From positions 7,106 through 71,105 of the forward strand of contig VMGB01000003.1 in assembly GCA_007376295.1 (NCBI GenBank): 64,000 nucleotides of DNA, read 5' to 3'. Position 1 is the stretch's first letter, and every line of letters starts with the position of its first letter. The DNA is from Parcubacteria group bacterium Gr01-1014_13. GTDB lineage: Bacteria; Patescibacteriota; Patescibacteriia; Magasanikbacterales; GWA2-37-8. Both the position numbers and the translations under genes were made by a program. The notes below the pieces were generated by a model that was not told the origin of the DNA, made no database searches, and was given only the letters and a program-made list of their open reading frames with translations. Below are positions 3,796 through 50,348 of the stretch, in pieces.

Positions 3796-5337
3796 TTGTA
3801 TAACTATATGAATAACTACATTTTGGCTATGTTGGCCATCGTAGTCGGCTCCGGAGCTGGAGTTGCTTTCGGCTATTTTTTGCGCAAAAAAATTGCCCAA
3901 GCCCAAGCCAATTCCATTGAAGCCAAGGCAGACAAAATCCTAACCGAAGCCAAAAGCCAGCAACAGGAAATTATAACTCAGGGCAAAGAAAAAGCTATCC
4001 AAATAATCGACGAAGCCAAACGTGAAGAAAAGCAAGTTCGCCAAGAACTGCACAGCGTGCAGGAAAGACTGGAAAGACGAGAAACAATGTTTGATCAAAA
4101 ATTAATTGAACTGCAAAACAACCAAAATAAACTTCAGGAACAGGCCAATAAAGTACAGCAAGTCAAACAAGAAATAGAAAAATTACGCGACCAGGAGATA
4201 GTAAAACTTCAAGAGTTAGCCAGCCTTACCAAAGAGGAAGCCAAAAACGAACTCTTGAAACGCGTTGAAGAACAAAGTAAAGCTGATCTCATGGCCAGAG
4301 TTTTGAAATTAGACAAGGAATCTCTAGAAGTCTACGACGCCAAAGCCAGAGAGCTTATTACCGACGCTGTTCAACGTGTTGCCTCTTCTCATGCTGCCGA
4401 AGTTACCTCCACTACTGTTCACTTACCAAGTGAAGATATGAAGGGCCGCATTATCGGTAAAGAAGGCCGCAACATTAAAACTATTGAAAAATTAACTGGT
4501 TGTGAACTGGTGATAGATGATACTCCAGATGCCATTATGGTTTCCGGCTTCTCCCCTATCCGCAGACAAATTGCCAAACTTGCACTGGAAAAATTAATGG
4601 CCGATGGCCGTATCCAACCAGCTCGTATTGAAGAATTTGTAGAAAAAGCTAAACAAGATTTAGCGATAGATATTAAAAAAGCTGGTGAAGAGGCTCTCTA
4701 CAAAATGGGTATCACTGGGATTGATCCAAAATTAGTCGGCATTGTTGGTCGTCTAAAGTACCGCACAAGCTATGGTCAAAATATTCTTATCCATTCTATG
4801 GAGACGGGATATTTAGCCGCTATTATCGCTGGTGAACTTGGACTTAATGCTGCTCATGCTAAAAAATGTGGTTTCTTCCATGATATCGGTAAAGCTGTAG
4901 ATCAAGAAACTCAAGGTTCTCACCCGGAAATCGGCCATATGATCTTGAAAAAGTTTAACATGGACGAGGATATCTGCCAGACTGCTCTAACCCACCACCA
5001 AGACAAGGCTTACAATATTTACGCCACCATTGCTAAAGCTGCGGACGCAATTTCCGGAGCTAGAGTTGGCGCGCGCAAAGACAGTTACGAACAATTTGTG
5101 GCTCGTTTGGAAGATTTGGAAAAGACTGCCAGCAGCTTCCCTGGTATCGATAAGGTATACGCTATTCAAGCTGGCCGTGAAATACGTGTCTTCGTAAAAC
5201 CAAACGAAATTGATGATTATTCCGCTTTCCAATTGGCCAAAGATATTTCTCGCAAGATTGAACAAGAGTTACAGTACCCTGGCGAAATCAGAGTTACCAT
5301 AATTCGTGAAACCAGAGTGGTAGAATACGCCAAGTAA
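3796..5337 (+). CDS. rny: Ribonuclease Y
   Basis: N-terminal TM followed by coiled coil. KH domain (GRIIGKEGRNIKTIE) and HD domain (FHDIGK...H) are present. Typical length. Confidence 0.9.
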   Translation: MYNYMNNYILAMLAIVVGSGAGVAFGYFLRKKIAQAQANSIEAKADKILTEAKSQQQEIITQGKEKAIQIIDEAKREEKQVRQELHSVQERLERRETMFDQKLIELQNNQNKLQEQANKVQQVKQEIEKLRDQEIVKLQELASLTKEEAKNELLKRVEEQSKADLMARVLKLDKESLEVYDAKARELITDAVQRVASSHAAEVTSTTVHLPSEDMKGRIIGKEGRNIKTIEKLTGCELVIDDTPDAIMVSGFSPIRRQIAKLALEKLMADGRIQPARIEEFVEKAKQDLAIDIKKAGEEALYKMGITGIDPKLVGIVGRLKYRTSYGQNILIHSMETGYLAAIIAGELGLNAAHAKKCGFFHDIGKAVDQETQGSHPEIGHMILKKFNMDEDICQTALTHHQDKAYNIYATIAKAADAISGARVGARKDSYEQFVARLEDLEKTASSFPGIDKVYAIQAGREIRVFVKPNEIDDYSAFQLAKDISRKIEQELQYPGEIRVTIIRETRVVEYAK

Positions 5338-5464
5338 ACCGTGGGGATAACTATTTTGCTTAATGTAGGCAAAAAAAACCGATCATGCTACAATAAGGGC
5401 TAAGATTGGGGAAATTAAAATCGTAGTCTATGTCAAAATTCCAAATTGGAAAGGGGGTGAAACT

Positions 5465-5740
5465 ATGAACAAAGCAGATTTAGCACAACACGTAGCTGAG
5501 AAATTAAACTTACCAAAGCGCCAAATTGAAGATACTCTTAACGCCATACTTGACACCGTAGTTGAACAATTAAAGAAAGGCGAAGAAGTTGTTTTGACTG
5601 GTTTTGGAGCTTTCAGCGCCAAGATGCGCGCCGCTCGCCAAGGTGTTAACCCGCAAAATCCTTCTCAAAAAATCCAAATCGCAGCTGTAACCGTACCAAA
5701 ATTCAAAGCAGGTAAAGCTTTAAAAGATTCTTTGAAATAA
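5465..5740 (+). CDS. hup: HU family DNA-binding protein
   Basis: MNKADLAQHVAEKLNL...GFGAFSAKMRAARQGVNPQN... is a canonical HU/IHF fold sequence. Strong RBS GGAAAGGGGGTG. Confidence 0.9.
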   Translation: MNKADLAQHVAEKLNLPKRQIEDTLNAILDTVVEQLKKGEEVVLTGFGAFSAKMRAARQGVNPQNPSQKIQIAAVTVPKFKAGKALKDSLK

Positions 5741-5775
5741 TTTCAGACTCAACAGTAATTACGTAATTACATAAC

Positions 5776-5806
5776 AAAAAAGCCCGACCAAGTCGGGTTT
5801 TTTTGT
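5776..5806 (+). terminator. Rho-independent terminator after hup (AGCCCGAC-CAA-GTCGGG + T-run)
   Basis: GC hairpin followed by TTTTTTTGTT. Confidence 0.7.
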
Positions 5807-5885
5807 TATTGCTAAACAGAGTTTTTTATTATTTAAACACAAATTTATTTTAATTATGATATAATAAATTTAAAGGAGGTACGCC

Positions 5886-6341
5886 GTGGCCAAACGCGAT
5901 AAAAAGCGACGCCGGCGCAAACCTCCGGCCAAAAAATCTCAATCAGCTCTGCCTACCAAAGGCAACCATCATGATCTGCTAGAAATTTTTAATGCCATAA
6001 ACCTTTGGTATTTTGATGGCAAAATCAAAGCCAGGATTAGTTGGGGTCGCAGAGTCCCCTTTCCTCCGCGCTACCACAAGACAATGAGTATGGCGCACTG
6101 CCATGTTGAAAATCGTTTGATAATTATCAGCCGTTCTCTCGACCGGTCTTCGGTGCCACGTTTAATCGTGGAATATACGGTATTTCACGAAATACTGCAC
6201 CTGAAATTTCCCCCGCGAATAAAAAACGGCCGTCATAATTTTCATTACAAAGAATTCTGCGACGCGGAAAAACAATTTGCCAACTATGCCGAGGCCGAAG
6301 AATGGGAGAAAAATCACAATTATCTCCTACATTTTTTCTAA
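5886..6341 (+). CDS. YgjP/DUF45-like (SprT-like) metal-dependent hydrolase
   Basis: WG..., HEILHL (HExxH) and downstream HNFHYKEF match the DUF45 arrangement WGSC...HExxHL..NHS..FW. Basic N-terminal tail. Confidence 0.5.
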   Translation: MAKRDKKRRRRKPPAKKSQSALPTKGNHHDLLEIFNAINLWYFDGKIKARISWGRRVPFPPRYHKTMSMAHCHVENRLIIISRSLDRSSVPRLIVEYTVFHEILHLKFPPRIKNGRHNFHYKEFCDAEKQFANYAEAEEWEKNHNYLLHFF

Positions 6342-6447
6342 AATATTGCCCCCTCCGTAAATACGGAACGGGGGTATTTTTTTAAATATTTGCATTTTCC
6401 CTTAAGCGATGATAGTATTTCCCCAAACCCAACAGGGAGATAATCTA

Positions 6448-7326
6448 ATGGAAAATCTAGAAAAAGAAGTCATCCAACCATCGTTGGGTGATAAAGTAGG
6501 CAACTTCCTTGGATTTGTCGGTATCCATGTGGCCTGTATTTTTGCCATTTGGACCGGTGTCACTTGGCGTTCTCTGGTAATCGCTTTTGTGCTGTACTGG
6601 ACACGCATGTTCCTGATTACCGGCGGCTACCACCGCTACTTTGCTCATCGCTCTTACAAAACCTCGCGCGCATTTCAGTTTGTGCTCGCTTTCTTAGGCA
6701 CAACTGCTATGCAAAAAGGTACGATTTGGTGGTCGGCCAGACATCGCATCCACCACAAACATTCCGACGAGCCGGAAGATATTCACTCGCCGAAAGTGTA
6801 CGGCTTCTGGCAGGCGCATATATGGTGGTTCTTGGGAAATAAGCACGGAAGCGGTATCACTGATTTAAGCCGAGTAAAAGACCTGGTAAAATACCCTGAA
6901 CTACGCTGGCTCGATAAATACCATTGGGTAGCGCCAATCATGCTTACCGGCCTATGCTACTACTTGGATGGGTGGACAGGCCTGATCGTCGGCCTAGCCT
7001 GGTCTACCGTGATATTTTGGCACTGTACATTTTTGGTCAATTCTATTGCCCACATCTGGGGTAGTAGGCGCTACCAAACCAAAGATGATAGCCGAAATAA
7101 CTGGTTTATCGCTCTGCTCACTATGGGCGAAGGATGGCATAACAACCATCATCACCGTCAAGGTTATGCCAGACAGGGCGTTAAATGGTGGGAAATTGAT
7201 ACCACTTATTACATCCTGCGACTGCTCGCTCTGTTTCGTCTAATCCGGGACTTAAATCCCGTATCTAAAAATAAACTGAAAAGTGATCCGGTCGAAGAAA
7301 CGGCCGTAGAACTTACAGCTCCTTAA
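6448..7326 (+). CDS. Acyl-CoA (delta-9-like) fatty-acid desaturase, membrane-bound
   Basis: Three histidine boxes are present: HRYFAH, HRIHHKH, HNNHHH. TM helices. Start chosen at the ATG preceded by GGAGA. Confidence 0.8.
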   Translation: MENLEKEVIQPSLGDKVGNFLGFVGIHVACIFAIWTGVTWRSLVIAFVLYWTRMFLITGGYHRYFAHRSYKTSRAFQFVLAFLGTTAMQKGTIWWSARHRIHHKHSDEPEDIHSPKVYGFWQAHIWWFLGNKHGSGITDLSRVKDLVKYPELRWLDKYHWVAPIMLTGLCYYLDGWTGLIVGLAWSTVIFWHCTFLVNSIAHIWGSRRYQTKDDSRNNWFIALLTMGEGWHNNHHHRQGYARQGVKWWEIDTTYYILRLLALFRLIRDLNPVSKNKLKSDPVEETAVELTAP

Positions 7327-10068: not shown

Positions 10069-10572
10069 TTAATCAGTAATAAAATTAGTCAAGGGTAGTT
10101 CTTTCTTAATCTTTTCTAGATCCTGCCTAGAGTAATTATTGCCCGAAAGATTCATTGTCTTTAATTTTTTTAAATTGCCAAGCTCGTAGGGCAATCCGGT
10201 AAGTTGGTTATTGGAAACATCAAGAATTTCTAAATCCGTAAGCTGGCCCAATTCGGCTGGCAACCCGGTCATTCTGTTATTTTTAAGATTGAGTACTTTT
10301 AATTTTCTAAGCTTTCTTATCTCAGCCGGCAATGCTCCCGTTAAATTATTACCGGATAAATCCAATTCCGTAATGTTTGTATTATCAAAAATTTCCATTG
10401 GGACGCGGTTTAGATTCTTATTGCTAAGATCAACCTTATTTAGATTATTATTCTCAATAATTCTGGCTGGATTAGGAAAGCCTGATTCTTCGGACTTATT
10501 AAGACAACCTGCGCCAATCACAAGTAGCGTCAAAGGGAGTAGTAGGATTAATTTTAATTTCATATAAATCAT
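10069..10572 (-). CDS. Leucine-rich-repeat lipoprotein
   Basis: Lipobox LVIGAGC. Six or more LxxLxLxxNxLxxLPxEIGxL repeats. Confidence 0.7.
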   Translation of the reverse strand: MIYMKLKLILLLPLTLLVIGAGCLNKSEESGFPNPARIIENNNLNKVDLSNKNLNRVPMEIFDNTNITELDLSGNNLTGALPAEIRKLRKLKVLNLKNNRMTGLPAELGQLTDLEILDVSNNQLTGLPYELGNLKKLKTMNLSGNNYSRQDLEKIKKELPLTNFITD

Positions 10573-12532: not shown

Positions 12533-15478
12533 TTAGTGAACCACTTCTTTCAACTGCCAGAACGTACTACTCCCCTTTTCAATGAGGATGTTTATTAATT
12601 TAACCACTTTTTCCTGAACAACCTTATTACCATTTTTATATATTACACTAAGAGCCTCTTTAATCTGACCATCATACAAAAGCGGCCCTCGATGACGGAA
12701 TGAATTTAATTTATTATCAGAATCAAGCAGATAATACCAAATAACTTCCAAGCATTTTTCTGGATTCTTTTCAGCAAGATAAGGGAGGCGTTTTAACAAA
12801 CCATAATCCCAATCAATGTCGCCACCAGATTTTTTTAGCGTATCGGCCATTTTTTCAACAACTATACTGTCATCTATAATCTCTCTGTCGGGATTAATCC
12901 AAAAACCAAAACCAGAAAATATTCCAGACTCTTTTATATTATCTATAACCCAACTCCAAAAATTAATAAGTTTTTCTTTACTAACATGATTTTCCTCCAA
13001 CCACTTATCACTAGCTACATCTTTAGTTAAACAACTACGACCTATGAAAGACACAAACTCCTGCTGACGAGTTATATTAATTTTTTTCCAAAAAGCGCTG
13101 ATTAAAGGATTATCTATTCCTATATTAAAATGAGCAAAAGCAAGAGCGAGATGAATTGCTAGGGTTTCATCTAAACCTTTCACATACTTCCTTTGTGTAT
13201 ATACTTCAGGGTCTAGTCCGATTGCATATTGATAATAATCTTTAAGCGCTATAAAAAGTTGCTCATATAAAGTACTGGATAAATAACCTTCCCAAGTCGC
13301 AAGATAAATATCTTTTTTAGTACGGTCGTCTTTAGGAAAAATTTCAGGAAATAGACCAGCTATAAACTCCTGATCCCGGAAATGAAATGAGGCTAGATAT
13401 CGGCCTAACATAAAACGAACTGCTAAAGAATTATCCTGAAGAACCTGCTTGTAAAGCAATTTAATATCATCCAACAATACTTTTCCATCATTCTCAACAA
13501 ACACTACAAATGCTTCACAGGCCCTGCCACGGACTGAATTAATAGCTATGTGATATAATTCGCCATATTCTGGTTTCTCATCATCTACTGAAGGACTATC
13601 TTTAATAGTGAAAAGATAAGAAATTAAATCTTTACTTTGTTGTCTATAAATTTCATGGACTTCTTTTCTTGTTTCTTTGCTTTCTAAAGTAAAGAGCAGG
13701 ATATCTGCCACAATAGTGTGTAACCCTACCCAATCTACCAACAAAAATCTATCATCTTTTTTATCTTTATTTTTCCTAAAGGGCTTTAGTTCCCCATCTT
13801 TTCTAATCACATCAAACAAGCTAATGAGCTGGCCTATTTGTTTTAAATTTAACGATTGTTTATTACGCAACATTTCTTCGATACCACGCAAAATAGAATA
13901 TAAATAATGTGGGTGAATAGACTCCCTGCCATAAAACCCTTTTATACTTTCGAGATAATCATTTGGCCGTTTCTTTATATCTTCTCTTAAAGCATCCCCT
14001 AGGCCTTCTACTCCTCGTGGATTTAAGAAGTCATCGTTCTTAAACTCTTCCTCAAATTTTTCTGCAGTCCAATCAGACTTTAATTTAGTAATAATTTTAT
14101 CAATAGTAAAATCAGCAATATTTACCGGAGATGTATGATGTACCCACCCACCTCTTGCTTTACCAACTGTCGGTTCAGGAATATAGTTTGTACTATCAAT
14201 GTCGACATGAAATTTATCTTTTATAACGCTCTTATTCTCTGGTGTCAGCCACTCTTTGATTAAACTAAGAATTTGTTTACCATCACGTTTTCTCCATTTT
14301 TCTACATCCTTATCTTCAAGACTGCCGCCAAAGTAACCAAAGATGCTATTAATATATTTTTGCTGAGTTTCTTTATCAAAGAATTTAAAGCTTCGTTTTA
14401 GTGATTGATGATACTCGGCCCCACCTTCAATTTCAGAATATGTTTCACCAACTTCAAATACCTTAAAGAATGCTTTCTTTAATTCTTCTTTAAAAACATT
14501 AGGACACTGAGATAAGGCAAAGAGTTTCAGCCTCCACATTGAACGAGACGAAGGCAAATTATTGATATACTCAAAAAATCTTCTAGCCGTGCTCTCATTT
14601 TCACAGTTTTTACCAACTGTTCTTTCAACAATTTTTTTAATTGAGGCCGCAAGGTTTTTTATATCCTCTCTAAAGGAAGCGCTTCTCTTACCGCTAAGCT
14701 CTAAAGTAAAAAAATCTACATCATATAAAGTAAATGAGTCGGAATATTCAAATATTTTTGTCTCGTCGTGGTCTGATAGTTTAACCATACTAGCCATTAC
14801 ATCAGTGGTGAGTTGCAAAGATCGCTCAACGTACTCCTCTTCTATATTGGCTAAAGCCTCAAAAATACCAGAGGCATCCAAATCACTTACATAGAAAGGA
14901 TCGTCTTTACTAAAACTATCTTTGGCAGAAACTTCCTCTTTACTTTTAACTAAAAGTAAAGCTTGGGCCAACTCTAACAAGGCCTGGCCTTCTTTTTTTT
15001 CTACTAAACTACTAACAACTTTTTCAAACTCATAACCAGTCTTACGGAAGGCACGCATTAAATAAATCCACCTCTCATCTCTCACTTTTGATGTAAGAGA
15101 TTTTATCTGCTCTGCTGGGAGGATGTATAAAATCCAAAAAAACCTATCAATAACCTCCGGGTTAAAATTTTCTTCGCTAATTTCCACTGATTTAATAACT
15201 TGAGCAACTCCATCAGGATCTTTTGCGGCAATTCGAGCCAAATACTCGAGCTCCGGCATTGTATAAAAAATCTGAGTAGTATTAACAGCTCTTTTCTTTA
15301 AACCATTAAAAAACCCTTCTTTCCAAAACCACTTGATCCAGAATTCATCAGCCATTGAAAAAAAGAATCTTTTAGCATCCTCATTTAACAAAAGATCCTG
15401 CCCAACTTTAACATTAGCAGATTCTAATCCTGCTTTAAAAAACGCCTCTATTTTATTATGTAATTCAAGCTGGTTCAT
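12533..15478 (-). CDS. Large hypothetical all-alpha protein (981 aa). No P-loop or known catalytic motif.
   Basis: Long clean ORF. Its ATG overlaps the upstream stop codon (ATGA at 15475-15478). Confidence 0.6.
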   Translation of the reverse strand: MNQLELHNKIEAFFKAGLESANVKVGQDLLLNEDAKRFFFSMADEFWIKWFWKEGFFNGLKKRAVNTTQIFYTMPELEYLARIAAKDPDGVAQVIKSVEISEENFNPEVIDRFFWILYILPAEQIKSLTSKVRDERWIYLMRAFRKTGYEFEKVVSSLVEKKEGQALLELAQALLLVKSKEEVSAKDSFSKDDPFYVSDLDASGIFEALANIEEEYVERSLQLTTDVMASMVKLSDHDETKIFEYSDSFTLYDVDFFTLELSGKRSASFREDIKNLAASIKKIVERTVGKNCENESTARRFFEYINNLPSSRSMWRLKLFALSQCPNVFKEELKKAFFKVFEVGETYSEIEGGAEYHQSLKRSFKFFDKETQQKYINSIFGYFGGSLEDKDVEKWRKRDGKQILSLIKEWLTPENKSVIKDKFHVDIDSTNYIPEPTVGKARGGWVHHTSPVNIADFTIDKIITKLKSDWTAEKFEEEFKNDDFLNPRGVEGLGDALREDIKKRPNDYLESIKGFYGRESIHPHYLYSILRGIEEMLRNKQSLNLKQIGQLISLFDVIRKDGELKPFRKNKDKKDDRFLLVDWVGLHTIVADILLFTLESKETRKEVHEIYRQQSKDLISYLFTIKDSPSVDDEKPEYGELYHIAINSVRGRACEAFVVFVENDGKVLLDDIKLLYKQVLQDNSLAVRFMLGRYLASFHFRDQEFIAGLFPEIFPKDDRTKKDIYLATWEGYLSSTLYEQLFIALKDYYQYAIGLDPEVYTQRKYVKGLDETLAIHLALAFAHFNIGIDNPLISAFWKKINITRQQEFVSFIGRSCLTKDVASDKWLEENHVSKEKLINFWSWVIDNIKESGIFSGFGFWINPDREIIDDSIVVEKMADTLKKSGGDIDWDYGLLKRLPYLAEKNPEKCLEVIWYYLLDSDNKLNSFRHRGPLLYDGQIKEALSVIYKNGNKVVQEKVVKLINILIEKGSSTFWQLKEVVH

Positions 15479-16290
15479 ACACTAGGAATATTCTCAATAA
15501 TCTTTTTCATGTCAATAAAAAAACTTCCAAACACCCTCTTGAAGCTTTCGACGCTTAGGCATTTCTCATTTTCACATGTCGGATCTTCAAGCTGTCTAAA
15601 TCCGTTTGTAATTGCCGCTTGCTGATGGTGTGTAACACCGGTAAAAAATTGATAGTATTTTTTAATTTTAGAACATGATAATTCTATTGTTTCAAAAAGC
15701 TCTACTGTTATTGCGCCTTTTTTAAAAAGATCTTTCAATGTTTTACCGAAATCATCTTCGTTGGCAGAAAATATTGAAAGCATTTCTCGAATAGAGGAGG
15801 CTGCATGCTCTCTCCACTCCTCATTATAATTTTCAGACCCAAATGCAAATACTGCCCCACGTAAATGACGGCGGTGGTCATTTGTCACACCTTTCGCTGG
15901 ATAGCTCTCTGGACGTAATCCATCCAACTTTAATCTAGATAAGTTATAAACTAAAAGACTTATTTTATTTATATCTTCTTCTGATATCCCCAACTGTTTG
16001 AATCCAACCTCATAAAAATTAACTATTTTTTCCTGCACTTCATTTCCTTCTAACAAATCATTGGAATTACCAATGCCAGGAGAACTAAAGTAATAGTTAA
16101 CAATTTTATCTCTACCAACGTTTTCACCAGACGATCCAGCAACATAAGAATTTTGTTCTTTTTTAGAAAAACGAAAAATAACCTTGCTGATCAACTCTTT
16201 ACCGCCAAATAAAGCAAGGATGGCTAGTAAAATCTTTAAAATCGTATCTATTACATCAGACATAATTCTGGTTAGGGTCGTTGAAACCAC
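15475..16290 (-). CDS. Hypothetical protein with a single N-terminal TM helix (271 aa), first gene of the operon
   Basis: IDTILKILLAILALFGG TM segment. Stop overlaps the next start. Confidence 0.5.
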   Translation of the reverse strand: MVSTTLTRIMSDVIDTILKILLAILALFGGKELISKVIFRFSKKEQNSYVAGSSGENVGRDKIVNYYFSSPGIGNSNDLLEGNEVQEKIVNFYEVGFKQLGISEEDINKISLLVYNLSRLKLDGLRPESYPAKGVTNDHRRHLRGAVFAFGSENYNEEWREHAASSIREMLSIFSANEDDFGKTLKDLFKKGAITVELFETIELSCSKIKKYYQFFTGVTHHQQAAITNGFRQLEDPTCENEKCLSVESFKRVFGSFFIDMKKIIENIPSV

Positions 16291-16450: not shown

Positions 16451-18634
16451 TTAGTAAGCAAAGAACAAATGAGCGTCAACCTGTTGAAAACTACCGCTTC
16501 CAATCTTTAGGAAGAAAAGCAGTTCCCAGTTTCCTGGCCCGGGGTTTGCAAATTCTGGGAAAAACCAGGACTCACCATTACTCGCTGGCAAATATGGACC
16601 AAAGTCCCAACTCCACCCAAGCGTACCGCTGTGATACGCCTCGATGCGGAACTGGACGTTGGTATTGACGGCGAGCCCGGTAAAGCGCAACCGCCAGTAG
16701 TAAGTGCTAAGCGACGAAAGCGAGCTTTGGCTAGACACTGGCGTCCAACACTGCGGCACTCCGTTTGCATCACGTTCGTTTTGATAATTACCGAGACAAA
16801 CATTGAACGAGCTGGAGGTGTAACCTCCAATGGGCGCGTTCACCGTAAAGGTAATATCCGACCGAAGCATTTGCCAACCGCCGCCGACATCGATTTCCAC
16901 CGATGCTCGCCAATTACCGCTAAGCGCATACCATAGGGTCGGCCAAGTATAAGCCGTACTCCAGACTTGTCCAGATGGTACAGTGGTCCAATCACTTACT
17001 TGTTCGGAGTAAACCGTCGAGGAACCATTGCGGTAAAACCGCGAACGGAACCTATACGACTGCCGAACATCCTGCACAAAGGACAACACACGAACGTTCT
17101 GCCCTTGCGAGAACACCGTTGCTGGTCTGGGGCAGGTATAGATCCAGTTGGTACTTTGTCCACCAGTAGGCTCATTGGAACATGTTACCGCGTTGCCATT
17201 GTAGATGAAAGGTGCTACTGGATTTACCGTAAACGGAATGATGGCTACATTTACATTCTCGAATTCCGTTCCACCGGGCAAATCAATATCTACCCGAGCT
17301 TCATAGGAACCAGAGATAACATTTCCAATTGTTGTCCAGTAATGCGCGTATTGCCAAGTCTCACCAGTTGGAACGTCGTTCCATCCAGTAGGACTGGTGG
17401 TATACAAAAAGGAACCATTGTGAAAAATCCGCGCGCGGAACCGATGTGAACTGGTCACATTGTCGATTCGCATCAGTACGGTTACGTTATCGCCTGCGGC
17501 ATAAGAACTCTGCTGGCCGTTACAGGTGTAAATCCAGTTCGTACTGGCTCCACCGGTGACAGAACCATTACAGTTGTAGTTGTTGCCATTGTACTGATAT
17601 GGCGAACCTGGCCATTGCTGACTACCTCCTGGGACAATGAAATGAAACGTGGTCAGCTGGAAAGGCCCGCTGCCAGTATTCGCGTAAATTCGCATATCCC
17701 AGTCACCAGCATAGACGTTGTTGAATCTGGGCAAATAGAACGCATGTGGCCACACATTCGGCTCCACCTGCAACGCACTATCTGTCCATGTCCAATCAGG
17801 TGATGACTGTCCGAGACGCCACGCTTCAATGCTGAAGGCGACATTCCTTTGGACATTGTCGACTCTGATGACCATGTTGGCATTCTGTCCAGGCTGAAAA
17901 ACAGTCTGACGATTCTGGCAACTGTAGATCCAGTTTGTGCTTTCTCCGCCAGTTACCGCATCGGTACAACCATAGACGTTATTGCTGTCTAGATTGAACT
18001 GAAACGAACCTTGCCAAGCGGGAACGCCTGGGATAGAAAGGTTTGAGTTCGCGGCGTATGACGGTGCCAATTCGAAATGGATGTGATCCACGTGCGGGAT
18101 TGGACCAGAGTAGATAGCCACCCTGCTAGCACTTGGACCAGAGGTGGTATATTGGGTTTTGTCCCAAACAAGAAACTGAACACCCAATGTTCCAGCATTA
18201 CTGATCAACCAGTTCGCAATTGGGTCACCAACACTGTTGTCCGCAGCGCCATTATCCATTGGGATATGAATATCCAATGCCCAACCAACACCATGGGTGG
18301 ATGTTTGCGATAGATTGGCTGTATTTGGCCTACACCAATACGTTTCGATTCTGGAGATACCAGAAAAAGCTCCCTTAACGTATTCAGCCAACTTAGTAGT
18401 GCCTGGAAGGAGGCCGCCACTACAACTTGATCCGTCGGCCGCCCATGCAGGCGGAACCATCATGTTGATTGTGACTCCTGCGGCCGCATTGAGAGCATCC
18501 GACGAAGGCGCGTAGTTGCCGGAGATGGCAACTGATTGCTCCACACTTTCCTCCCTATCCTTGCGATCATCGCTAGCGCAAGCCGCTACAATGAACGCTA
18601 CAATGAGAAGAGCTGCTTGTATTGATCTCGACAT
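16451..18634 (-). CDS. Lipoprotein M15/LAS-family zinc peptidase (peptidoglycan hydrolase-like) with three C-terminal repeats of about 110 aa
   Basis: Lipobox IVAAC. STHGVGWALD (H-x6-D) and VDHIHFE (HxH) zinc-ligand motifs. Three repeats each contain C-x3-TGG-x-STNWIY-[ST]-C. The gene has much higher GC than its flanks. Start chosen at the second ATG, which has a purine-rich RBS. Confidence 0.6.
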   Translation of the reverse strand: MSRSIQAALLIVAFIVAACASDDRKDREESVEQSVAISGNYAPSSDALNAAAGVTINMMVPPAWAADGSSCSGGLLPGTTKLAEYVKGAFSGISRIETYWCRPNTANLSQTSTHGVGWALDIHIPMDNGAADNSVGDPIANWLISNAGTLGVQFLVWDKTQYTTSGPSASRVAIYSGPIPHVDHIHFELAPSYAANSNLSIPGVPAWQGSFQFNLDSNNVYGCTDAVTGGESTNWIYSCQNRQTVFQPGQNANMVIRVDNVQRNVAFSIEAWRLGQSSPDWTWTDSALQVEPNVWPHAFYLPRFNNVYAGDWDMRIYANTGSGPFQLTTFHFIVPGGSQQWPGSPYQYNGNNYNCNGSVTGGASTNWIYTCNGQQSSYAAGDNVTVLMRIDNVTSSHRFRARIFHNGSFLYTTSPTGWNDVPTGETWQYAHYWTTIGNVISGSYEARVDIDLPGGTEFENVNVAIIPFTVNPVAPFIYNGNAVTCSNEPTGGQSTNWIYTCPRPATVFSQGQNVRVLSFVQDVRQSYRFRSRFYRNGSSTVYSEQVSDWTTVPSGQVWSTAYTWPTLWYALSGNWRASVEIDVGGGWQMLRSDITFTVNAPIGGYTSSSFNVCLGNYQNERDANGVPQCWTPVSSQSSLSSLSTYYWRLRFTGLAVNTNVQFRIEAYHSGTLGWSWDFGPYLPASNGESWFFPEFANPGPGNWELLFFLKIGSGSFQQVDAHLFFAY

Positions 18635-18729
18635 TTTTTCCCTTTTTCCTTTTCTACGCACCATGCGTGCCTAGATGATATACAATAAAAAAAGAACCGT
18701 CAATGTTGCTTGACAGCTCTTTTTTTAAT

Positions 18730-19293
18730 TTAAATATTTCGAGTAACAACAAGGTTGTGAATATCTTTTGAAAAATCCACCTGATACTCACAAAGGTTTT
18801 TCATAGCATGCACTTGCCCTGAACAGGTAATAATCAACTTTCCTTCTCGAAGGAAAGTTTTACCTAAAATCTCTAACTCAAACGCATCAATCTCTGTATC
18901 ATATACGCTGACCGGAGTACCGGCTAGTTTTGATTCTGCCACCTGTAAAAAAATGCGTCCAGCAGAACGTGTTGGAGACTCTTCCCCTCCACCTACTCTA
19001 TATATGCGGTATGATAAACCATTCTCTTTATCTACAACATCTTTAACCTCGTAAACATATGCGAGTGTTATCTTTCCCCTTGCGTTCTTAATAGGTAAAA
19101 TAGTTCTATTTTCACCAACTGCGTATATATTAGCTGTTTCAAATAGAGAATCCAAATTCAAGCCATCGTCCTCTTCTTTTACCACGTCATTTTTTGTATT
19201 GTCTTTAGGTGCTTCTCCGTACTTAATTCCTACAAAAAAACTGCCGACAATTAATATAGCTGCAAGCCCTACCAATAATAATTTTTTAGTCAT
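18730..19293 (-). CDS. Hypothetical membrane-anchored protein
   Basis: N-terminal TM. No motif recognised. Confidence 0.4.
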   Translation of the reverse strand: MTKKLLLVGLAAILIVGSFFVGIKYGEAPKDNTKNDVVKEEDDGLNLDSLFETANIYAVGENRTILPIKNARGKITLAYVYEVKDVVDKENGLSYRIYRVGGGEESPTRSAGRIFLQVAESKLAGTPVSVYDTEIDAFELEILGKTFLREGKLIITCSGQVHAMKNLCEYQVDFSKDIHNLVVTRNI

Positions 19294-19313
19294 AATAAAT
19301 AATTAATTTATTG

Positions 19314-19385
19314 TAGCCCCAACGGGAATCGAACCCGTATTTTATCCGTGAAAGGGATATGTCCTAACCATTAGACGATGAGGCC
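19314..19385 (-). tRNA. tRNA-Glu (anticodon TTC)
   Basis: A cloverleaf was built by hand. Acceptor GGCCTCA/TGGGGCT (with G-U pairs). D-arm GTCT/GGAC. Anticodon loop CTTTCAC. T-arm ACGGG-TTCGATT-CCCGT. No encoded CCA. Confidence 0.8.
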
Positions 19386-19501: not shown

Positions 19502-19927
19502 ATGGAAAATACCGGAAGAAAGACAGCTGCTCTTTTAATTGTTATCTCTGCTTTGTATCTAGCCGTGTTTGATTGGGAATGGCCATCAATCACCCATCTC
19601 AAATTTAGCTGGCCCTATACGATCGGAATTGCAGTGGCTGTGCTTTTTTGTATGGCCGAAAGATTTCTAAAACACGCCAATACACCTGATTTTCAGTGGA
19701 AAAAATTGTTCAAAACCCATTTTTTCGCTTTCTTGATCTTTTGCCCCATTTCGATAATTGTGATTTTACCGAAACTAGGTCCAGCAAATGATATCTGGAG
19801 CACCGATTACAGAATTGCTTTTTTGATCACCTTCTTTTTCATTACTGTCGGACCAAAGATCGGCACTATTTCCGAAAGACTGGAAAGCTTGCTCACTCCC
19901 AAAAATGGTAAAAAGACGGGGGTATAA
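19502..19927 (+). CDS. Hypothetical polytopic membrane protein
   Basis: Four TM helices. Confidence 0.4.
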   Translation: MENTGRKTAALLIVISALYLAVFDWEWPSITHLKFSWPYTIGIAVAVLFCMAERFLKHANTPDFQWKKLFKTHFFAFLIFCPISIIVILPKLGPANDIWSTDYRIAFLITFFFITVGPKIGTISERLESLLTPKNGKKTGV

Positions 19928-20033: not shown

Positions 20034-20107
20034 GTCAGGGTAGCTCAGTTGGTGAGAGCACGGGATTCATAACCCCGAGGTCGAGAGTTCGACTCTCTCC
20101 CCTGACA
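20034..20107 (+). tRNA. tRNA with CAT anticodon (elongator Met or Ile2/lysidine)
   Basis: Acceptor GTCAGGG/CCCTGAC. D-arm GCTC/GAGC. Anticodon loop TTCATAA. T-arm GAGAG-TTCGACT-CTCTC. No encoded CCA. Confidence 0.8.
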
Positions 20108-20110
20108 CAT

Positions 20111-37917: not shown

Positions 37918-39144
37918 ATGTCTCTGCGCAAAAAAATTATACTTAGTATTATTCTTCTTTTAGTAGCTGGTCTAATTGCTTATGGTTTATATTATATTTT
38001 CACCAGCACCGGAAAAATAGGCGAACCCACACCTCCTTCTGGCGAAGTTCTGCCTGGAGGTCAATTACCTGGATCTGGCGCTGGCCCTGCTACTACCACC
38101 GGAGTAACTCAGGGTCCGGGTGGAGAACTCTTACCAGTTTCGGGCATCATAGCTTCCACTAGCCCATCCTTTTACAAACCGGTTTCAGTTAGACAAGTAA
38201 TATCAGAAACCGCTACTTATCCTTCTTTGAATTCCGGGGGCGATTTTCGTTATTACAACGCCAATGATGGTAAATTTTACCGGGTAATGCCTGATGGCGG
38301 AATAAAAATGTTATCTGATCAAGTATTTTTTAATGCCCAAAAAGTTACCTGGGCAAAAAATCAAAACGAGGCTGTTATTGAATACCCGGACAGTTCAAAA
38401 ATAATCTACAATTTTGATACCAATAAACAAGTCACTCTGCCTAAACATTGGCAGGATTTTTCTTTCTCGGCCGATGGTTCTCAAGTTGCGGCCAAAAGCA
38501 TTGGCCTGGATCCATCCAATCGTTGGCTGGTCACTATAGATAATGACGGCTCCGGCGCAAAACTCATCGAACCAATGGGCGAAAACGCAGATAAAGTTAC
38601 AGTAAGCTGGTCTCCCAGCCAACAGGTAGTTGCTTTTTCCCAGACTGGCGAACCCCAAGGCGGAGAAAGACGCGAAGTTCTTTTCATAGGTTTAAATGGA
38701 GAAAATTTTAAATCAGCAATTGTGGAGGGCTCCGGATTCCAACCGCAATGGTCTACTACCGGAAAAAAGTTGTTATATAGCGTGCACAGCTCACGCAGTG
38801 ATTTTAAGCCGGAATTATGGCTGGTAGATGCCTACGGAGAAAATATTGGCAGCAATCGGCGTCTGCTCAAACTTAATACTTGGGCTGACAAATGCACTTT
38901 TAGCAATGACGACACCGCTTTCTGCGCTGTTCCCAGAGACCTTCCTTCCGGCGCTGGCATGGCTCGGGATATTGCCGCCTATAATTATGACGATCTATAC
39001 AAAATAGATTTAAAAACTGGCTTGAAAAGCCCCATACCTCTAAACGATAATTTTAATATTACTAATATTTCTTATAACGCTGGAACCAAAAAAATAATAT
39101 TTACCGATCTAAACAAAACCGGTGTCTTTGAATCTCAGTTATAA
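37918..39144 (+). CDS. Membrane-anchored TolB-like beta-propeller protein
   Basis: N-terminal TM, G/P-rich linker, repeated WD40-like beta-strand motifs. Confidence 0.45.
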   Translation: MSLRKKIILSIILLLVAGLIAYGLYYIFTSTGKIGEPTPPSGEVLPGGQLPGSGAGPATTTGVTQGPGGELLPVSGIIASTSPSFYKPVSVRQVISETATYPSLNSGGDFRYYNANDGKFYRVMPDGGIKMLSDQVFFNAQKVTWAKNQNEAVIEYPDSSKIIYNFDTNKQVTLPKHWQDFSFSADGSQVAAKSIGLDPSNRWLVTIDNDGSGAKLIEPMGENADKVTVSWSPSQQVVAFSQTGEPQGGERREVLFIGLNGENFKSAIVEGSGFQPQWSTTGKKLLYSVHSSRSDFKPELWLVDAYGENIGSNRRLLKLNTWADKCTFSNDDTAFCAVPRDLPSGAGMARDIAAYNYDDLYKIDLKTGLKSPIPLNDNFNITNISYNAGTKKIIFTDLNKTGVFESQL

Positions 39145-39145
39145 T

Positions 39146-39802
39146 ATGCCAAACCACAAAAAATTATATTTATTACTCTTGGCTATGGTGGCTTTGGCCG
39201 GAATTTTCTTTTACCGACAAATAATGCGTGCTCGACAAATCACTGTTGTACGCACTGAAGCCCCTTTAATTTCACCTAGCGTTATATTTATTCCAACTTC
39301 AGAATCCGAACAAACTTTGGGTAATCCAGGAGCAAACATTATCGTGACTGAATTTGTAGATATTGGCTGCGCTCGCTGTCTGTCTCTGCACTCCGCCATG
39401 AAACAATTTGTAATCAAACACCCTCAAGACATAAGACTGGTTTGGAAAGACAACGTCAAACCGGGAATTCTATCAGATCACACCTTAGCTCATCAGGCCG
39501 CGTATTGTGCTGGCAAACAAAATAAATTTTGGCAATTTTTGGATATCGCCGCTGGCCAACGAAATAATTTGGCAGAAGCAGGGCTGAAAAAAATTGCTCT
39601 GAATCTAAATTTAAACATAGAGGTATTCTGGCTCTGCACCAACAGCCCGGAAACAAAACAGGCTATCGCTGATTCTTCTTTGCAGGCTAGTCAGTTGGGC
39701 GTACGGTCATTGCCCGCTATTTTTGTGAACAATAAAATGATAAATACAGACAAAGATATAAATATCGAAGAAATGCTGACAAATTTTATTGTAAAGCCTT
39801 AA
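39146..39802 (+). CDS. DsbA-like thiol:disulfide oxidoreductase
   Basis: N-terminal TM, CARC (CxxC) active site, thioredoxin-like length. Confidence 0.6.
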   Translation: MPNHKKLYLLLLAMVALAGIFFYRQIMRARQITVVRTEAPLISPSVIFIPTSESEQTLGNPGANIIVTEFVDIGCARCLSLHSAMKQFVIKHPQDIRLVWKDNVKPGILSDHTLAHQAAYCAGKQNKFWQFLDIAAGQRNNLAEAGLKKIALNLNLNIEVFWLCTNSPETKQAIADSSLQASQLGVRSLPAIFVNNKMINTDKDINIEEMLTNFIVKP

Positions 39803-39809
39803 ACAAAAT

Positions 39810-41306
39810 ATGTTTTTCCGTAAGACCAAAAAAATTGTTCTGATTCTTTCATTGGTCTTTCTTTTTGTCCCCATTTTTTGGAACAGCCGCGCTGTAGCAG
39901 GTTTCTTCGATGATTTCGCTTGTCTAACTGGCAACGTCGGCAGTTGCACACAAATTGTGGAGGACATAAAAACATATACAGACGCGCTGTGCAAACAAAA
40001 ATGCGGCGAACGAGAATGCGAAGTAACAAGCAAAACTTCCAATGAAATAATCTTTGATGCCTTTACTAAAGGCGGACTCACAGCATTGGATCCGATAACA
40101 GACGTTGAATGTAAGGGCGCGGATGGTTCAGAGTTGTCTGAATTACAAGCAGATGTGGCTGGTGGTAAATATAAACCGACTCTGGAAATAAATATCCCCG
40201 GTTTAAATCTTAGCGATGTCCGATCTTCTACCGATGATACCGGCACCTATTTTTATATTGCCTGGATACCAGAATTAATCTCCGCTCTATACAAATTTGG
40301 TATTGCTATAGTAAGTATTGTGGCGGCAGTAGTAATTATTATCCAAGGTCTACGCGTGGTTACTTCCGGCGGTGGCGAAGGCAAAACTACAGCTTATAAA
40401 AAAATCTTCCAATCTGTAATAGGACTATTTATCGCTTGGGGTTCATACGCGATTTTGTATAATATTAATCCGGCGCTAGTGGAGTTTAATGCTTTAAAAG
40501 TAAAGGTGGTGGAGAGGGTAGATTTAGAAGCCAGCTTAGGTACTACAAATGTCGCAACTGGCGAAGAGAGTGGTGCTCCGGAACCAGGGAGCCATCCACC
40601 GACCACTATTCCCTGCCCATTCACGCTTATAGAAACGTCGGGGGATAAGGGCAGAGCGGAGTTTTACCAAAAACTTCAGACGAGCGGAGCGGTCACCGCG
40701 ACAACACCACGGGAGAAGACTGTGCAAATTGCCGACATCGCCGATGCCTGTAATATTAATCTCGGATCCTGCGGGCGGACTGCTGGAGCCATCGTTGCGC
40801 TCGCTGGCACCAACCCAAAAAACTGCCTCGACCCGGCAAGTGGAAACTGCAATGGCAGCTACAAACGACGAATCCGAGCTATTTCACAAAATCAACGACT
40901 ATACACTTATGGCTGGAGATGCTCGATCAATAAGAAGGAGTACCCAAATAACCCACCGCGTTCTAACTGTGTCAATACACCTCTGGAAGCTACAAAAATC
41001 ATACGCGACTACCTTAAAGCGCAGGCGGCTGCGGGTAGCCCAGAACTAAAGGGTTGGCCCGACGAGTGGGCCAACCAACTGCGACCAGGCGATTATGTCG
41101 TGTTTTATAATGGTAATGACGATCTCGTCGGATCGCATGCCGTAATTTTCATGGGATGGGCATCAGAAGGTCGCATGCAGGTAGTTCAAGGCGGTATGGG
41201 CAAATATACCAATCCTCCAAACAGCACTGCCAGCGGCACATGGTGCGTGAAAAGCTCGTGCGGCGAGTCCATGGTTCCACTACTCTACATTTACACTCCA
41301 GATTGA
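39810..41306 (+). CDS. Cys-rich secreted mosaic protein: VirB2/TrbC-like hydrophobic hairpin plus C-terminal NlpC/P60-CHAP-like hydrolase domain
   Basis: Signal peptide and more than 10 Cys. Two TM segments separated by RVVTSGGGEGKTTAYKK. C-terminus has ...GSCGRTAGAIV... and RPGDYVVFYNGNDDLVGSHAVIFMGW. The 3' half is visibly GC-richer. Confidence 0.55.
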   Translation: MFFRKTKKIVLILSLVFLFVPIFWNSRAVAGFFDDFACLTGNVGSCTQIVEDIKTYTDALCKQKCGERECEVTSKTSNEIIFDAFTKGGLTALDPITDVECKGADGSELSELQADVAGGKYKPTLEINIPGLNLSDVRSSTDDTGTYFYIAWIPELISALYKFGIAIVSIVAAVVIIIQGLRVVTSGGGEGKTTAYKKIFQSVIGLFIAWGSYAILYNINPALVEFNALKVKVVERVDLEASLGTTNVATGEESGAPEPGSHPPTTIPCPFTLIETSGDKGRAEFYQKLQTSGAVTATTPREKTVQIADIADACNINLGSCGRTAGAIVALAGTNPKNCLDPASGNCNGSYKRRIRAISQNQRLYTYGWRCSINKKEYPNNPPRSNCVNTPLEATKIIRDYLKAQAAAGSPELKGWPDEWANQLRPGDYVVFYNGNDDLVGSHAVIFMGWASEGRMQVVQGGMGKYTNPPNSTASGTWCVKSSCGESMVPLLYIYTPD

Positions 41307-49565: not shown

Positions 49566-50183
49566 TCAAGCGCCCACTGGCTTCTCGCTGATGAAACCGA
49601 ACAAGGAGTCATTTCTACAGTTAATGCCATGCCGGACCGAACGGTAGTCCAGGTGTCGATAGTCTGGATAACCGTAGAGATGGAACACATTGCCGTGCCG
49701 TACGGAGCCGAGCGCCACGATTGGCGCTTGCCGTTGTTCCTCAGGATACTGGATGCCAATAGCGTGGATGTGCTTGGGCATGATGGGCTTCTTATCACCA
49801 TTCCCCTTGGCCCACGCGAGTATCTCATCGTAAGATGGACTCCGGTCAAACTGATACAAATCAACACTCATCGACTCAGCCAAGTCAGCCTCGTCGTCGA
49901 CAAACAGTGTGATAATACGTTTGTCGCAGGTATCATACTTGCCAAGCTTGATGGCGTGCTTGTGCGACCTCACATTGTTTGATTTGAGATCAAGTGTCTT
50001 GACTAGGGTACCGACTATGGGTGGTTCCGGTACCGGCCGTCTAGGCAAGGGGGGCTCCTTTGGCTCTACGATGATACCGCACTCACCGCTGAGTACTGCT
50101 CGCGCAACCTTATCGCCACCAATAATATTTATAAGCGCCTCGATCTGGCCGAGTTTCCAATCGCCATATTTCGCCATCTGCGT
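49566..50183 (-). CDS. High-GC hypothetical protein (about 205 aa)
   Basis: Clean ORF with AGGAG RBS. GC is visibly above the flanks. No motif recognised. Confidence 0.4.
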   Translation of the reverse strand, partial: TQMAKYGDWKLGQIEALINIIGGDKVARAVLSGECGIIVEPKEPPLPRRPVPEPPIVGTLVKTLDLKSNNVRSHKHAIKLGKYDTCDKRIITLFVDDEADLAESMSVDLYQFDRSPSYDEILAWAKGNGDKKPIMPKHIHAIGIQYPEEQRQAPIVALGSVRHGNVFHLYGYPDYRHLDYRSVRHGINCRNDSLFGFISEKPVGA

Positions 50184-50310
50184 TCTCCTTCTGGACTGAA
50201 AGCCCAAAAAGCATTTTGCCCCTGCCCGGGACCTAGGTCTTCTCTCATGAGAAGAACGTATACATATACTCGTTATTTTAAATTCTGTCAAGAAACACAC
50301 CAAAAACAAA

Positions 50311-50348
50311 ACATCCCCAGACATTATGTCTAAGGGATGTTTTTTATA
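50311..50348 (-). terminator. rpsA terminator hairpin + T-run
   Basis: CATCCCCAGACAT..ATGTCTAAGGGATG with T-runs. Confidence 0.55.

Follow-up and report, generated by a model that had tools for sequence, protein, structure and literature searches.

A probable surface lipoprotein with a VldE-type peptidase head on a Cys-loop repeat stalk in a Parcubacteria group bacterium, and the exchange of heads among its relatives

A minus-strand gene of Parcubacteria group bacterium Gr01-1014_13, an ultrasmall bacterium from groundwater that belongs to the Candidate Phyla Radiation (CPR), probably encodes a surface lipoprotein in which a VldE-type peptidase head that cuts cell-wall cross-links is carried on a swappable-head repeat stalk, with a small partner gene lying directly upstream. 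The gene occupies positions 16451–18664 of a 64,000-nucleotide stretch of contig VMGB01000003.1 (positions 7,106 to 71,105 of the contig), which was analysed as a whole and is referred to below as the window. This reading is carried by the identities of the domains, the conservation of individual residues, the architecture of the repeats, the swapping of heads between relatives and the linkage of the partner gene to the VldE-type head. An original prediction, made from the letters of the window, had described the gene as a high-GC lipoprotein peptidase, likely acquired horizontally and perhaps from a high-GC host or a phage of that host; much of its description of the protein has stood, and its account of the gene's origin has not.

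Gene layout and the VldE-family head

The gene, its domains and the partner gene are laid out in the window as follows, with residue numbers counted from the start of the longest open reading frame (ORF).

16451–18664, minus strand: ORF of the hydrolase, 737 aa counting the stop codon, as given in the ORF listing
18578–18634, minus strand: predicted signal peptide and lipobox (…IVAFIVAA-C29), a lipoprotein anchor by consensus match only
18023–18523, minus strand: VldE-family (PF26571) LAS-fold zinc peptidase head, aa 48–214, by profile match to PDB 9flh/9fln
17627–18022, minus strand: repeat R1, aa 215–346, Cys-loop beta-sandwich (C233–C249), all-beta with pLDDT 73–90 in the full-length model
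17219–17626, minus strand: repeat R2, aa 347–482, Cys-loop beta-sandwich (C365–C381), with a single-repeat model at pLDDT 90.1 and pTM 0.83
16835–17218, minus strand: repeat R3, aa 483–610, Cys-loop beta-sandwich (C495–C511), by repeat alignment and repeat hidden Markov model (HMM)
16454–16834, minus strand: degenerate repeat R4, aa 611–737, with a shifted Cys pair (C623–C639), by repeat HMM match to aa 621–736
18730–19293, minus strand: partner gene, 187 aa, with an N-terminal transmembrane anchor and two conserved Cys; homologues lie upstream of VldE-head relatives
18675–18727, minus strand: intergenic stretch after the partner gene, with a terminator-like hairpin at 18727–18686 (consensus scan)
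18675–18703, minus strand: -35/-10 match (TTGACG-17-TATCAT, 18703–18675) ahead of the hydrolase, overlapping the hairpin (consensus scan)

The true start of the gene is likely to be the ATG at 18634 (M11), giving a protein of 727 aa, because a purine-rich sequence resembling a ribosome-binding site, AAGGAAAAAGGG, precedes it and the N-termini of homologues align at M11; no such signal was seen ahead of the alternative ATG at 18664. Position 18634 is also where the original prediction had placed the end of its gene. The lipoprotein character that it had proposed agrees with the sequence V-A-A-C at aa 26–29, which fits the pattern [LVI][ASTVI][GAS]-C (a consensus match only), and an equivalent lipobox has been kept in most of the homologues (P0002–5, P0007, P0010 and P0011). 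Spurious ORFs within the gene had also been pointed out, and ORFs of 60–160 aa are indeed found in its other frames.

Both zinc-ligand signatures that had been read in the N-terminal domain are present, STHGVGWALD at aa 122–131 and VDHIHFE at aa 192–198. When the head was searched against the PDB as a single sequence, there was a weak match (E=0.0026) to 9flh, whose 129-residue chain bears the label ‘LysM domain-containing protein’, and a profile built from ten heads (A1) matched the same entry (9flh_AA) at E=5.7e-10, over profile positions 36–151 and spanning both metal motifs. Moreover, the database entry identical to this protein, like its relatives, carries the precomputed Pfam label PF26571, ‘VldE’. 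While the code 9flh does not occur in the main text of the paper on VldE (PMC11667670), we infer that the entry is the VldE catalytic module, on the grounds of its LysM label, the existence of six related PDB entries where the paper reports six structures, and the Ala that 9fln carries at the position aligned with H373.

In 2024, the pneumococcal protein VldE (Spr1875, from Streptococcus pneumoniae) was shown to be a zinc-dependent L,D-endopeptidase of the LAS fold, acting on stem peptides that are cross-linked; its zinc ligands are H301, D308 and H375, an arginine (R294) stabilises the transition state, and two histidines (H370 and H373) activate water (PMC11667670). Each of these residues has a counterpart in the head described here, and each counterpart is invariant in ten sequences of the family and outgroup: the predicted zinc ligands are H124, D131 and H196, the predicted transition-state arginine is R112 (the alignment at this point needs a 2-residue shift for an insertion), and the predicted water-activating histidines are H191 and H194. 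An extended H-x-D-H-x-H motif, including D193, is likewise invariant in the ten sequences, and C81 and C111 of the head are conserved.

The original prediction had placed the domain among LAS/M15-type peptidases. Its assignment to the LAS zinc peptidoglycan peptidases holds at the superfamily level, given the VldE profile and the catalytic residues, and fails at the level of the M15 families of Pfam, for the Peptidase_M15, VanY and Peptidase_M15_3/_4 models gave no match in hmmscan even at E<=10, so that M15 family membership was ruled out. In the Pfam set used, which lacks the VldE model, the sole match of the protein at E<=10 was a sub-threshold one to Extensin-like_C (PF06904; E=0.031, 14.9 bits against a cutoff of 25.4), a model that is matched above threshold in the relative P0014 and that we take to be another family of the LAS clan. 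Judged by its sequence, the head belongs to the VldE family (PF26571), and its LAS relationship to M15 is one of fold or clan, not of family.

Repeat stalk, head exchange and partner gene

Three tandem Cys-loop repeats follow the head, as originally proposed, and they are evident in both protein and DNA: direct repeats at 17131–17182, 17521–17572 and 17917–17968, at intervals of 390 and 396 nt, coincide with the three Cys loops. Each unit measures about 130 aa rather than 110; the loop TGG-x-STNWIY-[ST]-C is as it had been written, except that it opens with C-x4-TGG rather than C-x3, and the first of the associated segments reads IRVDNV rather than VRVDNV. A degenerate fourth copy, which had also been anticipated, was found by the repeat HMM at aa 621–736. 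Pairwise identity is 31–42% among R1–R3 and 17–31% between R4 and the others, and in all four copies the Cys pair is 16 residues apart (233/249, 365/381, 495/511 and 623/639). Across 39 aligned repeat copies, the Cys pair, one Trp and one Gly are invariant.

No match to the repeats was found in Pfam or NCBIfam, and the repeat profile had no relative among PDB sequences (E>0.5). The structure of the repeats had been raised earlier as a means of recognising carbohydrate- or wall-binding folds, and the single-repeat AlphaFold model of R2 is in fact an all-beta sandwich (pLDDT 90.1, pTM 0.83) with a modest resemblance to carbohydrate-binding modules (CBMs). Its best match among solved structures is the carbohydrate-binding domain of Wzt, which belongs to an O-antigen ABC transporter (8dky_A; TM-score 0.61/0.58, root-mean-square deviation 3.4 Å, E=8.4e-5), followed by CBM-like sandwiches and accessory domains of glycosidases, a porphyran-binding CBM, CARDB and RhoGDI. 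The full-length model (mean pLDDT 77.6) resembles tandem MG/Ig/FN3 arrays, such as those of complement C5 and PrgB.

An exhaustive search of 1.84 billion representative proteins with the repeat profile gave 213 matches at E<=0.001, with one to five copies in each. When 145 repeat-bearing representatives were scanned with Pfam, Peptidase_M23 was found in 49 of them, CHAP in six, C39-like peptidase in three, NlpC/P60 in one and trypsin-like domains in two to three, while a few carried CBM_4_9, FN3 or a type IX secretion system tail; M23 was thus the usual head among the wall hydrolases, and the VldE head itself was present in just two representatives. As modelled, the repeats appear to be an undescribed, rare family of Ig-like beta-sandwiches, and because of the domains with which they are associated, together with their fold, they are most plausibly a rare module dedicated to cell-wall hydrolases, one that would target or space the enzyme. 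Among the matches, P0156 is a giant protein of 3366 aa with 26 partial matches to repeat-profile positions 87–111, and it is probably an unrelated short-repeat protein. Elsewhere in the window, a gene for a DsbA-like thiol-disulfide oxidoreductase is followed by one for a 498-aa protein with a weak match to type IV secretion system pilin (39122–41306, plus strand); extracytoplasmic disulfide machinery of this kind would fit with Cys-loop repeats.

Searching with the full-length protein has identified 12 close relatives, which are 47–88% identical over the repeats and whose N-terminal heads are of the VldE type (PF26571), of several M23 kinds (PF01551) or of the metzincin type (PF01400). The clearest view of how such differences arise is provided by two contigs, L003 with a VldE head and L005 with an M23 head, in both of which the gene is found near those for ribosomal protein S9, a 263-aa product, a MurJ-like flippase and glycosyltransferases. 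The DNA of the two is 95–98% identical on either side of a break (L003 9242–10714, L005 1943–2843) that spans only the small upstream partner gene and the head. Along the proteins themselves there is a gradient, in that identity between P0007 and P0010 rises from 19% in the head to 57% in R1, 72% in R2, 97% in R3 and 100% in R4, and that between P0001 and P0005 from 22% in the head to 78%, 91%, 91% and 96% in R1 through R4. The 5′ part of the gene has been replaced by recombination, with the repeat stalk conserved and the catalytic head exchanged.

The family is sparsely distributed, with a close relative in only one of 185,579 species-representative genomes; a relative (L008) lies in a metagenome-assembled genome of Ca. 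Magasanikbacteria. The family occupies at least five different genomic neighbourhoods, a variety of contexts that supports mobility within CPR lineages. Several of these neighbourhoods contain genes of envelope biogenesis, including a MurJ/Polysacc_synt flippase and glycosyltransferases in L003, L005 and L008, and FtsE/FtsX with a Mur ligase in L001. In the last of these (5069–6667), the M23-head member P0013 lies about 3 kb downstream of the FtsE/FtsX pair; in other bacteria, FtsEX is an activator system for cell-wall hydrolases. Other neighbours of the partner-hydrolase pair are a TIR-domain protein and a NERD protein in L004 (1881–3299 and 7964–8755), a helix-turn-helix protein, an ImmA-like M78 peptidase and a recombinase zinc-ribbon fragment in L006 (7145–8807), and, downstream of the pair in L007 (4871–5167), a type IV secretion system pilin gene.

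Immediately upstream of the hydrolase, and on the same strand, a homologue of the partner gene (186–208 aa; E from 1e-16 to 1e-82) is found in all six VldE-head loci, namely the window, L003, L004, L006, L007 and L014, whose neighbourhoods differ. The partner protein is marked by a transmembrane anchor at its N-terminus, a pair of invariant Cys and a YRIYRVG motif, and no relative of it was found in Pfam, PHROG or the PDB. Its family consists of nine clusters, and a metagenome scan with an alignment of four members recovered L007 only. Moreover, the swap between L003 and L005 removed the partner gene along with the VldE head, and the partner gene is missing from the M23-head loci L001/L002 and L005. 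It is a reasonable hypothesis that the partner is a cognate regulator or inhibitor of the VldE-type head. A strict exclusivity between partner and VldE head was also considered and was dropped in view of L008, L010 and L011.

Base composition and genomic surroundings

The gene has a GC content of 0.499, whereas the window has 0.40 (z=2.4 over 45 other ORFs), so that the original description of it as richer than its flanks is accurate and the term ‘high-GC’ is apt in a relative sense only. The deviation is largest at codon position 2 (z=3.3), since Ser, Gly, Ala, Thr, Pro and Trp are abundant in the protein while Lys and Glu are scarce, and GC at codon position 3 (GC3) is 0.504 compared with a mean of 0.371 (z=2.1). 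If the protein is recoded with the synonymous preferences of the backbone, a GC of 0.462 is predicted, so about 60% of the excess is due to amino acid composition; what is left at synonymous positions (GC3 0.504 observed, 0.399 expected) has z=1.75 and is the second largest such residual in the window. The codon usage of the gene, which had been proposed as a check on foreign origin, is distinct in raw GC3 and considerably less so once the protein is accounted for. The highest GC3 in the window (0.565), along with a synonymous residual (+0.20) above that of the hydrolase, belongs to a 252-aa ORF at 49566–50324 on the minus strand, whose sole Pfam match is sub-threshold and probably spurious. 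The other high-GC3 genes of the window are ordinary accessory genes, and high expression was ruled out on that ground as the meaning of high GC3.

A raised GC content is common to the hydrolase wherever it has been examined, with values of 0.45–0.55 on contigs of 0.37–0.40 and a GC3 of 0.39–0.65 across loci, the repeats usually being richer in GC3 than the head. The partner gene, in the window as in L003, L004, L006, L007 and L008, has a GC3 of 0.20–0.29, which is below the contig average and makes for a sharp step at a single gene boundary. The bias is specific to the hydrolase gene and is not that of an island, given such values in a partner that travels with it; one possible cause is a recombination-associated bias among the repeats.

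An account that develops the original prediction has the gene acquired recently from a host of high GC, such as an actinobacterium, or from a phage of that host, retaining the composition of its donor and serving to remodel the host's wall. This account, which we regard as highly doubtful, can draw on the raised GC at all loci examined, on the GC3 of 0.65 in L004, on the number of genomic neighbourhoods, which implies mobility, and on the tRNA-Glu gene 650 nt upstream. It can also draw on the head's relatives elsewhere: those with VldE domains outside the family are on contigs of 65–69% GC, those in phages are all tape-measure proteins of actinophages, and VldE homologues occur mainly in environmental Actinobacteria (PMC11667670). 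However, the GC content is no more than 0.50, its excess is largely dictated by amino acids, the synonymous residual is not the maximum of the window, and the other high-GC3 genes there are ordinary accessory genes. All full-length relatives are on contigs of 37–44% GC, and neither a full-length nor a repeat relative was found on high-GC contigs, in IMG/VR or among phages. Outside the family, the heads that come closest are 43–48% identical, and are therefore too diverged for the codon composition of a donor to have persisted; moreover, their contigs carry sigma-54 activators and an OmpA-domain gene, which we take to indicate diderm bacteria rather than Actinobacteria. GC3 is higher in the repeats, for which no high-GC relatives were found, than in the head, the co-moving partner gene is low in GC3, and neither an integrase nor flanking direct repeats were found near the gene. 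An origin in phages was ruled out in its own right, as the repeats have no match in phages or IMG/VR and the head has only distant ones to tape-measure proteins (28–31% identity by tblastn; PHROG profile phrog_9228, E=9.5e-7). Recent capture from an actinobacterial host or a phage is not supported by these data; an ancient transfer of the head at the domain level is possible.

In the immediate surroundings of the gene, the tRNA-Glu(TTC) at 19313–19385 (minus strand) lies just upstream of the partner gene and, together with a tRNA-Met(CAT) at 20034–20108 (plus strand), flanks a 141-aa membrane ORF at 19502–19927. Directly downstream of the hydrolase, at 12533–16290 on the minus strand, are genes of 981 and 271 aa that overlap by 4 nt and have a GC3 of 0.27; their products have no match in Pfam or PHROG, and the shorter one has a hydrophobic segment at its N-terminus. 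At 10069–10572 on the minus strand is the gene for a small leucine-rich-repeat protein (LRR_8, E=1.5e-17), within a stretch of unannotated low-GC genes from about 9.9 to 16.3 kb that may be a variable region. The possibility that the hydrolase serves a type IV secretion cluster was rejected for the window, where its neighbours are housekeeping genes.

Function, rival roles and known systems

The most likely course of action begins with the protein tethered through its lipobox on the outside of the cytoplasmic membrane, from where the head, a single-zinc L,D-endopeptidase by homology, would hydrolyse stem-peptide cross-links in peptidoglycan. The four disulfide-looped, Ig-like repeats, as they are modelled, may bind a glycan of the cell envelope and so target or space the enzyme, while recombination at the gene's 5′ end would exchange its heads among the VldE-LAS, several M23 and metzincin types. 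Finally, the small, membrane-anchored, extracytoplasmic partner might act as a cognate regulator or inhibitor. In this scheme the specificity of the enzyme, the binding of glycan, the role of the partner and the choice between the cell's own wall and that of a host are reasoned from the likenesses described above. The neighbouring envelope-biogenesis genes and the precedent of pneumococcal VldE favour an own-wall autolysin; the rarity and patchiness of the family, the replacement of heads between near-identical genomes and the possibility that the partner is protective favour a role in conflict or host interaction, and action on a host wall is possible.

Several observations weigh against the reading of a VldE-type head on a glycan-binding stalk with a cognate partner. 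The E368 latch of pneumococcal VldE, part of a zinc-zipper with a latent state of four zincs, is not conserved (I189/P190 are aligned with it, in ‘GPIPHVDHIH’), and regulation may for that reason differ from that of the pneumococcal enzyme, although the latch is a feature of the latter and may not define the family. A structural search with the whole model was dominated by the repeats, so the fold of the head rests on its sequence profile; the likeness of the repeats to glycan-binding domains is modest (TM-score of about 0.6, with about 10% identity in structural alignments), and Ig-like sandwiches are functionally promiscuous. As for the partner, L008 has an M23 head and yet keeps a partner gene one gene removed from its hydrolase, two partners are orphans, for which no hydrolase lies closer than 6 kb, and the presence of the partner in 6/6 VldE-head loci against 1/3 of the others is not statistically decisive, the loci being phylogenetically related. 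Finally, the promoter and terminator matches between partner and hydrolase are no commoner than expected from shuffled sequence and are weak evidence.

With regard to biological role, there is somewhat less than an even chance that the protein is a housekeeping autolysin, one that remodels its producer's peptidoglycan during growth, division or stress, binds the producer's own wall through its repeats and carries heads that are redundant endopeptidases. The predicted lipoprotein anchor would hold it in the producer's own membrane, family members adjoin envelope-biogenesis genes (L003, L005, L008 and L001), and pneumococcal VldE is a septum-localised, stress-induced autolysin (PMC11667670). Against such a role, the family is rare, patchy and no part of a conserved core, its genomic position varies, and a four-domain stalk would hardly be needed to reach the cell's own wall. 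The M23 and LAS endopeptidases are classic and partly interchangeable cleavers of cross-links, which would accommodate the variety of heads on an autolysin, but the replacement of a head between near-identical genomes is more typical of diversifying or conflict-driven selection. A further reading is that of an effector-immunity pair, in which an antibacterial or host-directed, wall-degrading effector has interchangeable ‘warheads’ and the upstream 187-aa protein provides immunity. This is rather unlikely, despite the interchangeable heads on a constant scaffold, a partner that is extracytoplasmic by topology (a transmembrane anchor and a conserved Cys pair), adjacent in every VldE-head locus and lost jointly with that head in the L003/L005 swap, orphan partners and a partner kept beside a swapped head (L008) that resemble orphan immunity genes, and the defence or mobile neighbours in L004 (TIR and NERD) and L006 (ImmA-like protein and recombinase fragment). 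The protein has no secretion-system or toxin-delivery domain and looks membrane-tethered rather than released, its M23-head relatives are without an obvious equivalent partner, and the partner has no detectable homology to immunity or inhibitor families in Pfam, PHROG or the PDB. Moreover, an N-terminal variable domain with a candidate immunity gene upstream is the reverse of the layout of classical polymorphic toxin loci.

A broader proposal can be made, tentatively and with low probability, that CPR episymbionts possess a cassette system in which a constant, glycan-binding stalk of four repeats recognises the envelope of a partner or host, warheads of the LAS, M23 and metzincin types are recombined to match the host's peptidoglycan, and LAS warheads are accompanied by a membrane-anchored protein for self-protection. 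If true, such a system would be a determinant of host range or attachment in ultrasmall bacteria, as well as a new effector-immunity pair. It is largely unknown how CPR/Patescibacteria attach to their hosts and take up resources from them, and surface enzymes that modify walls are obvious candidates. Neither the modular design of such wall hydrolases nor the VldE family is new in itself; what is new is the repeat family, the combination of VldE head and repeats in CPR, the head swap in situ and the partner gene. As to the CPR member of the recently characterised VldE family, no earlier report was found, though the literature was not searched specifically for one. The rare, disulfide-looped repeat is a candidate wall- or glycan-binding module of use for annotation and possibly for the engineering of lysins, the contig pair is a clean natural example of a catalytic domain replaced in place between near-identical genomes, and the small, unannotated partner may regulate or inhibit LAS endopeptidases. 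Finally, the account of capture from a high-GC host is corrected to one of protein composition, for the most part, together with a synonymous bias specific to the gene.

Among known systems, the M15/LAS peptidases of MEROPS (VanX, VanY, the DD-carboxypeptidase of Streptomyces albus and phage L-Ala-D-Glu endolysins) are set apart from the protein in that it matches none of the M15, VanY or M15_4 models of Pfam. The peptidoglycan-hydrolase motif of mycobacteriophage tape-measure proteins (phrog_9228) is distantly matched, as an internal segment, by the head, whereas no phage relatives of the repeats were found and the window shows no sign of a prophage. The C-terminal carbohydrate-binding domain of Wzt (PDB 8dky, 6o14 and 2r5o) is an Ig-like beta-sandwich like the repeat and recognises a glycan cap; it is, however, cytoplasmic where the repeat is predicted to be extracytoplasmic, it lacks the disulfide loop, and at about 10% identity the two have no sequence-level relation.

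The closest parallel for the head is VldE/Spr1875, whose catalytic module is homologous to it by profile and shares its zinc ligands, its arginine and its H-x-D-H-x-H motif. Both are modular, secreted proteins that join a wall-binding module to a catalytic one, but the catalytic module is N-terminal here and C-terminal in VldE, and the targeting module consists of four novel Cys-loop beta-sandwiches in place of LysM. Unlike VldE, the protein is predicted to be anchored as a lipoprotein, it has an additional conserved Cys pair (C81/C111) and a longer R-to-H spacer, and it comes from a CPR bacterium rather than from Streptococcus pneumoniae. In its overall plan, it is most reminiscent of modular M23/CHAP hydrolases and phage endolysins, such as lysostaphin with its SH3b domain and the LysM-CHAP autolysins, which likewise combine one catalytic domain with repeated wall-targeting domains and undergo domain shuffling. 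It differs from hydrolases of the lysostaphin type in that its targeting repeat belongs to an undescribed family, without a sequence match in Pfam, NCBIfam or the PDB, and in that the replacement of its head has been caught in situ, between contigs that are otherwise nearly the same.

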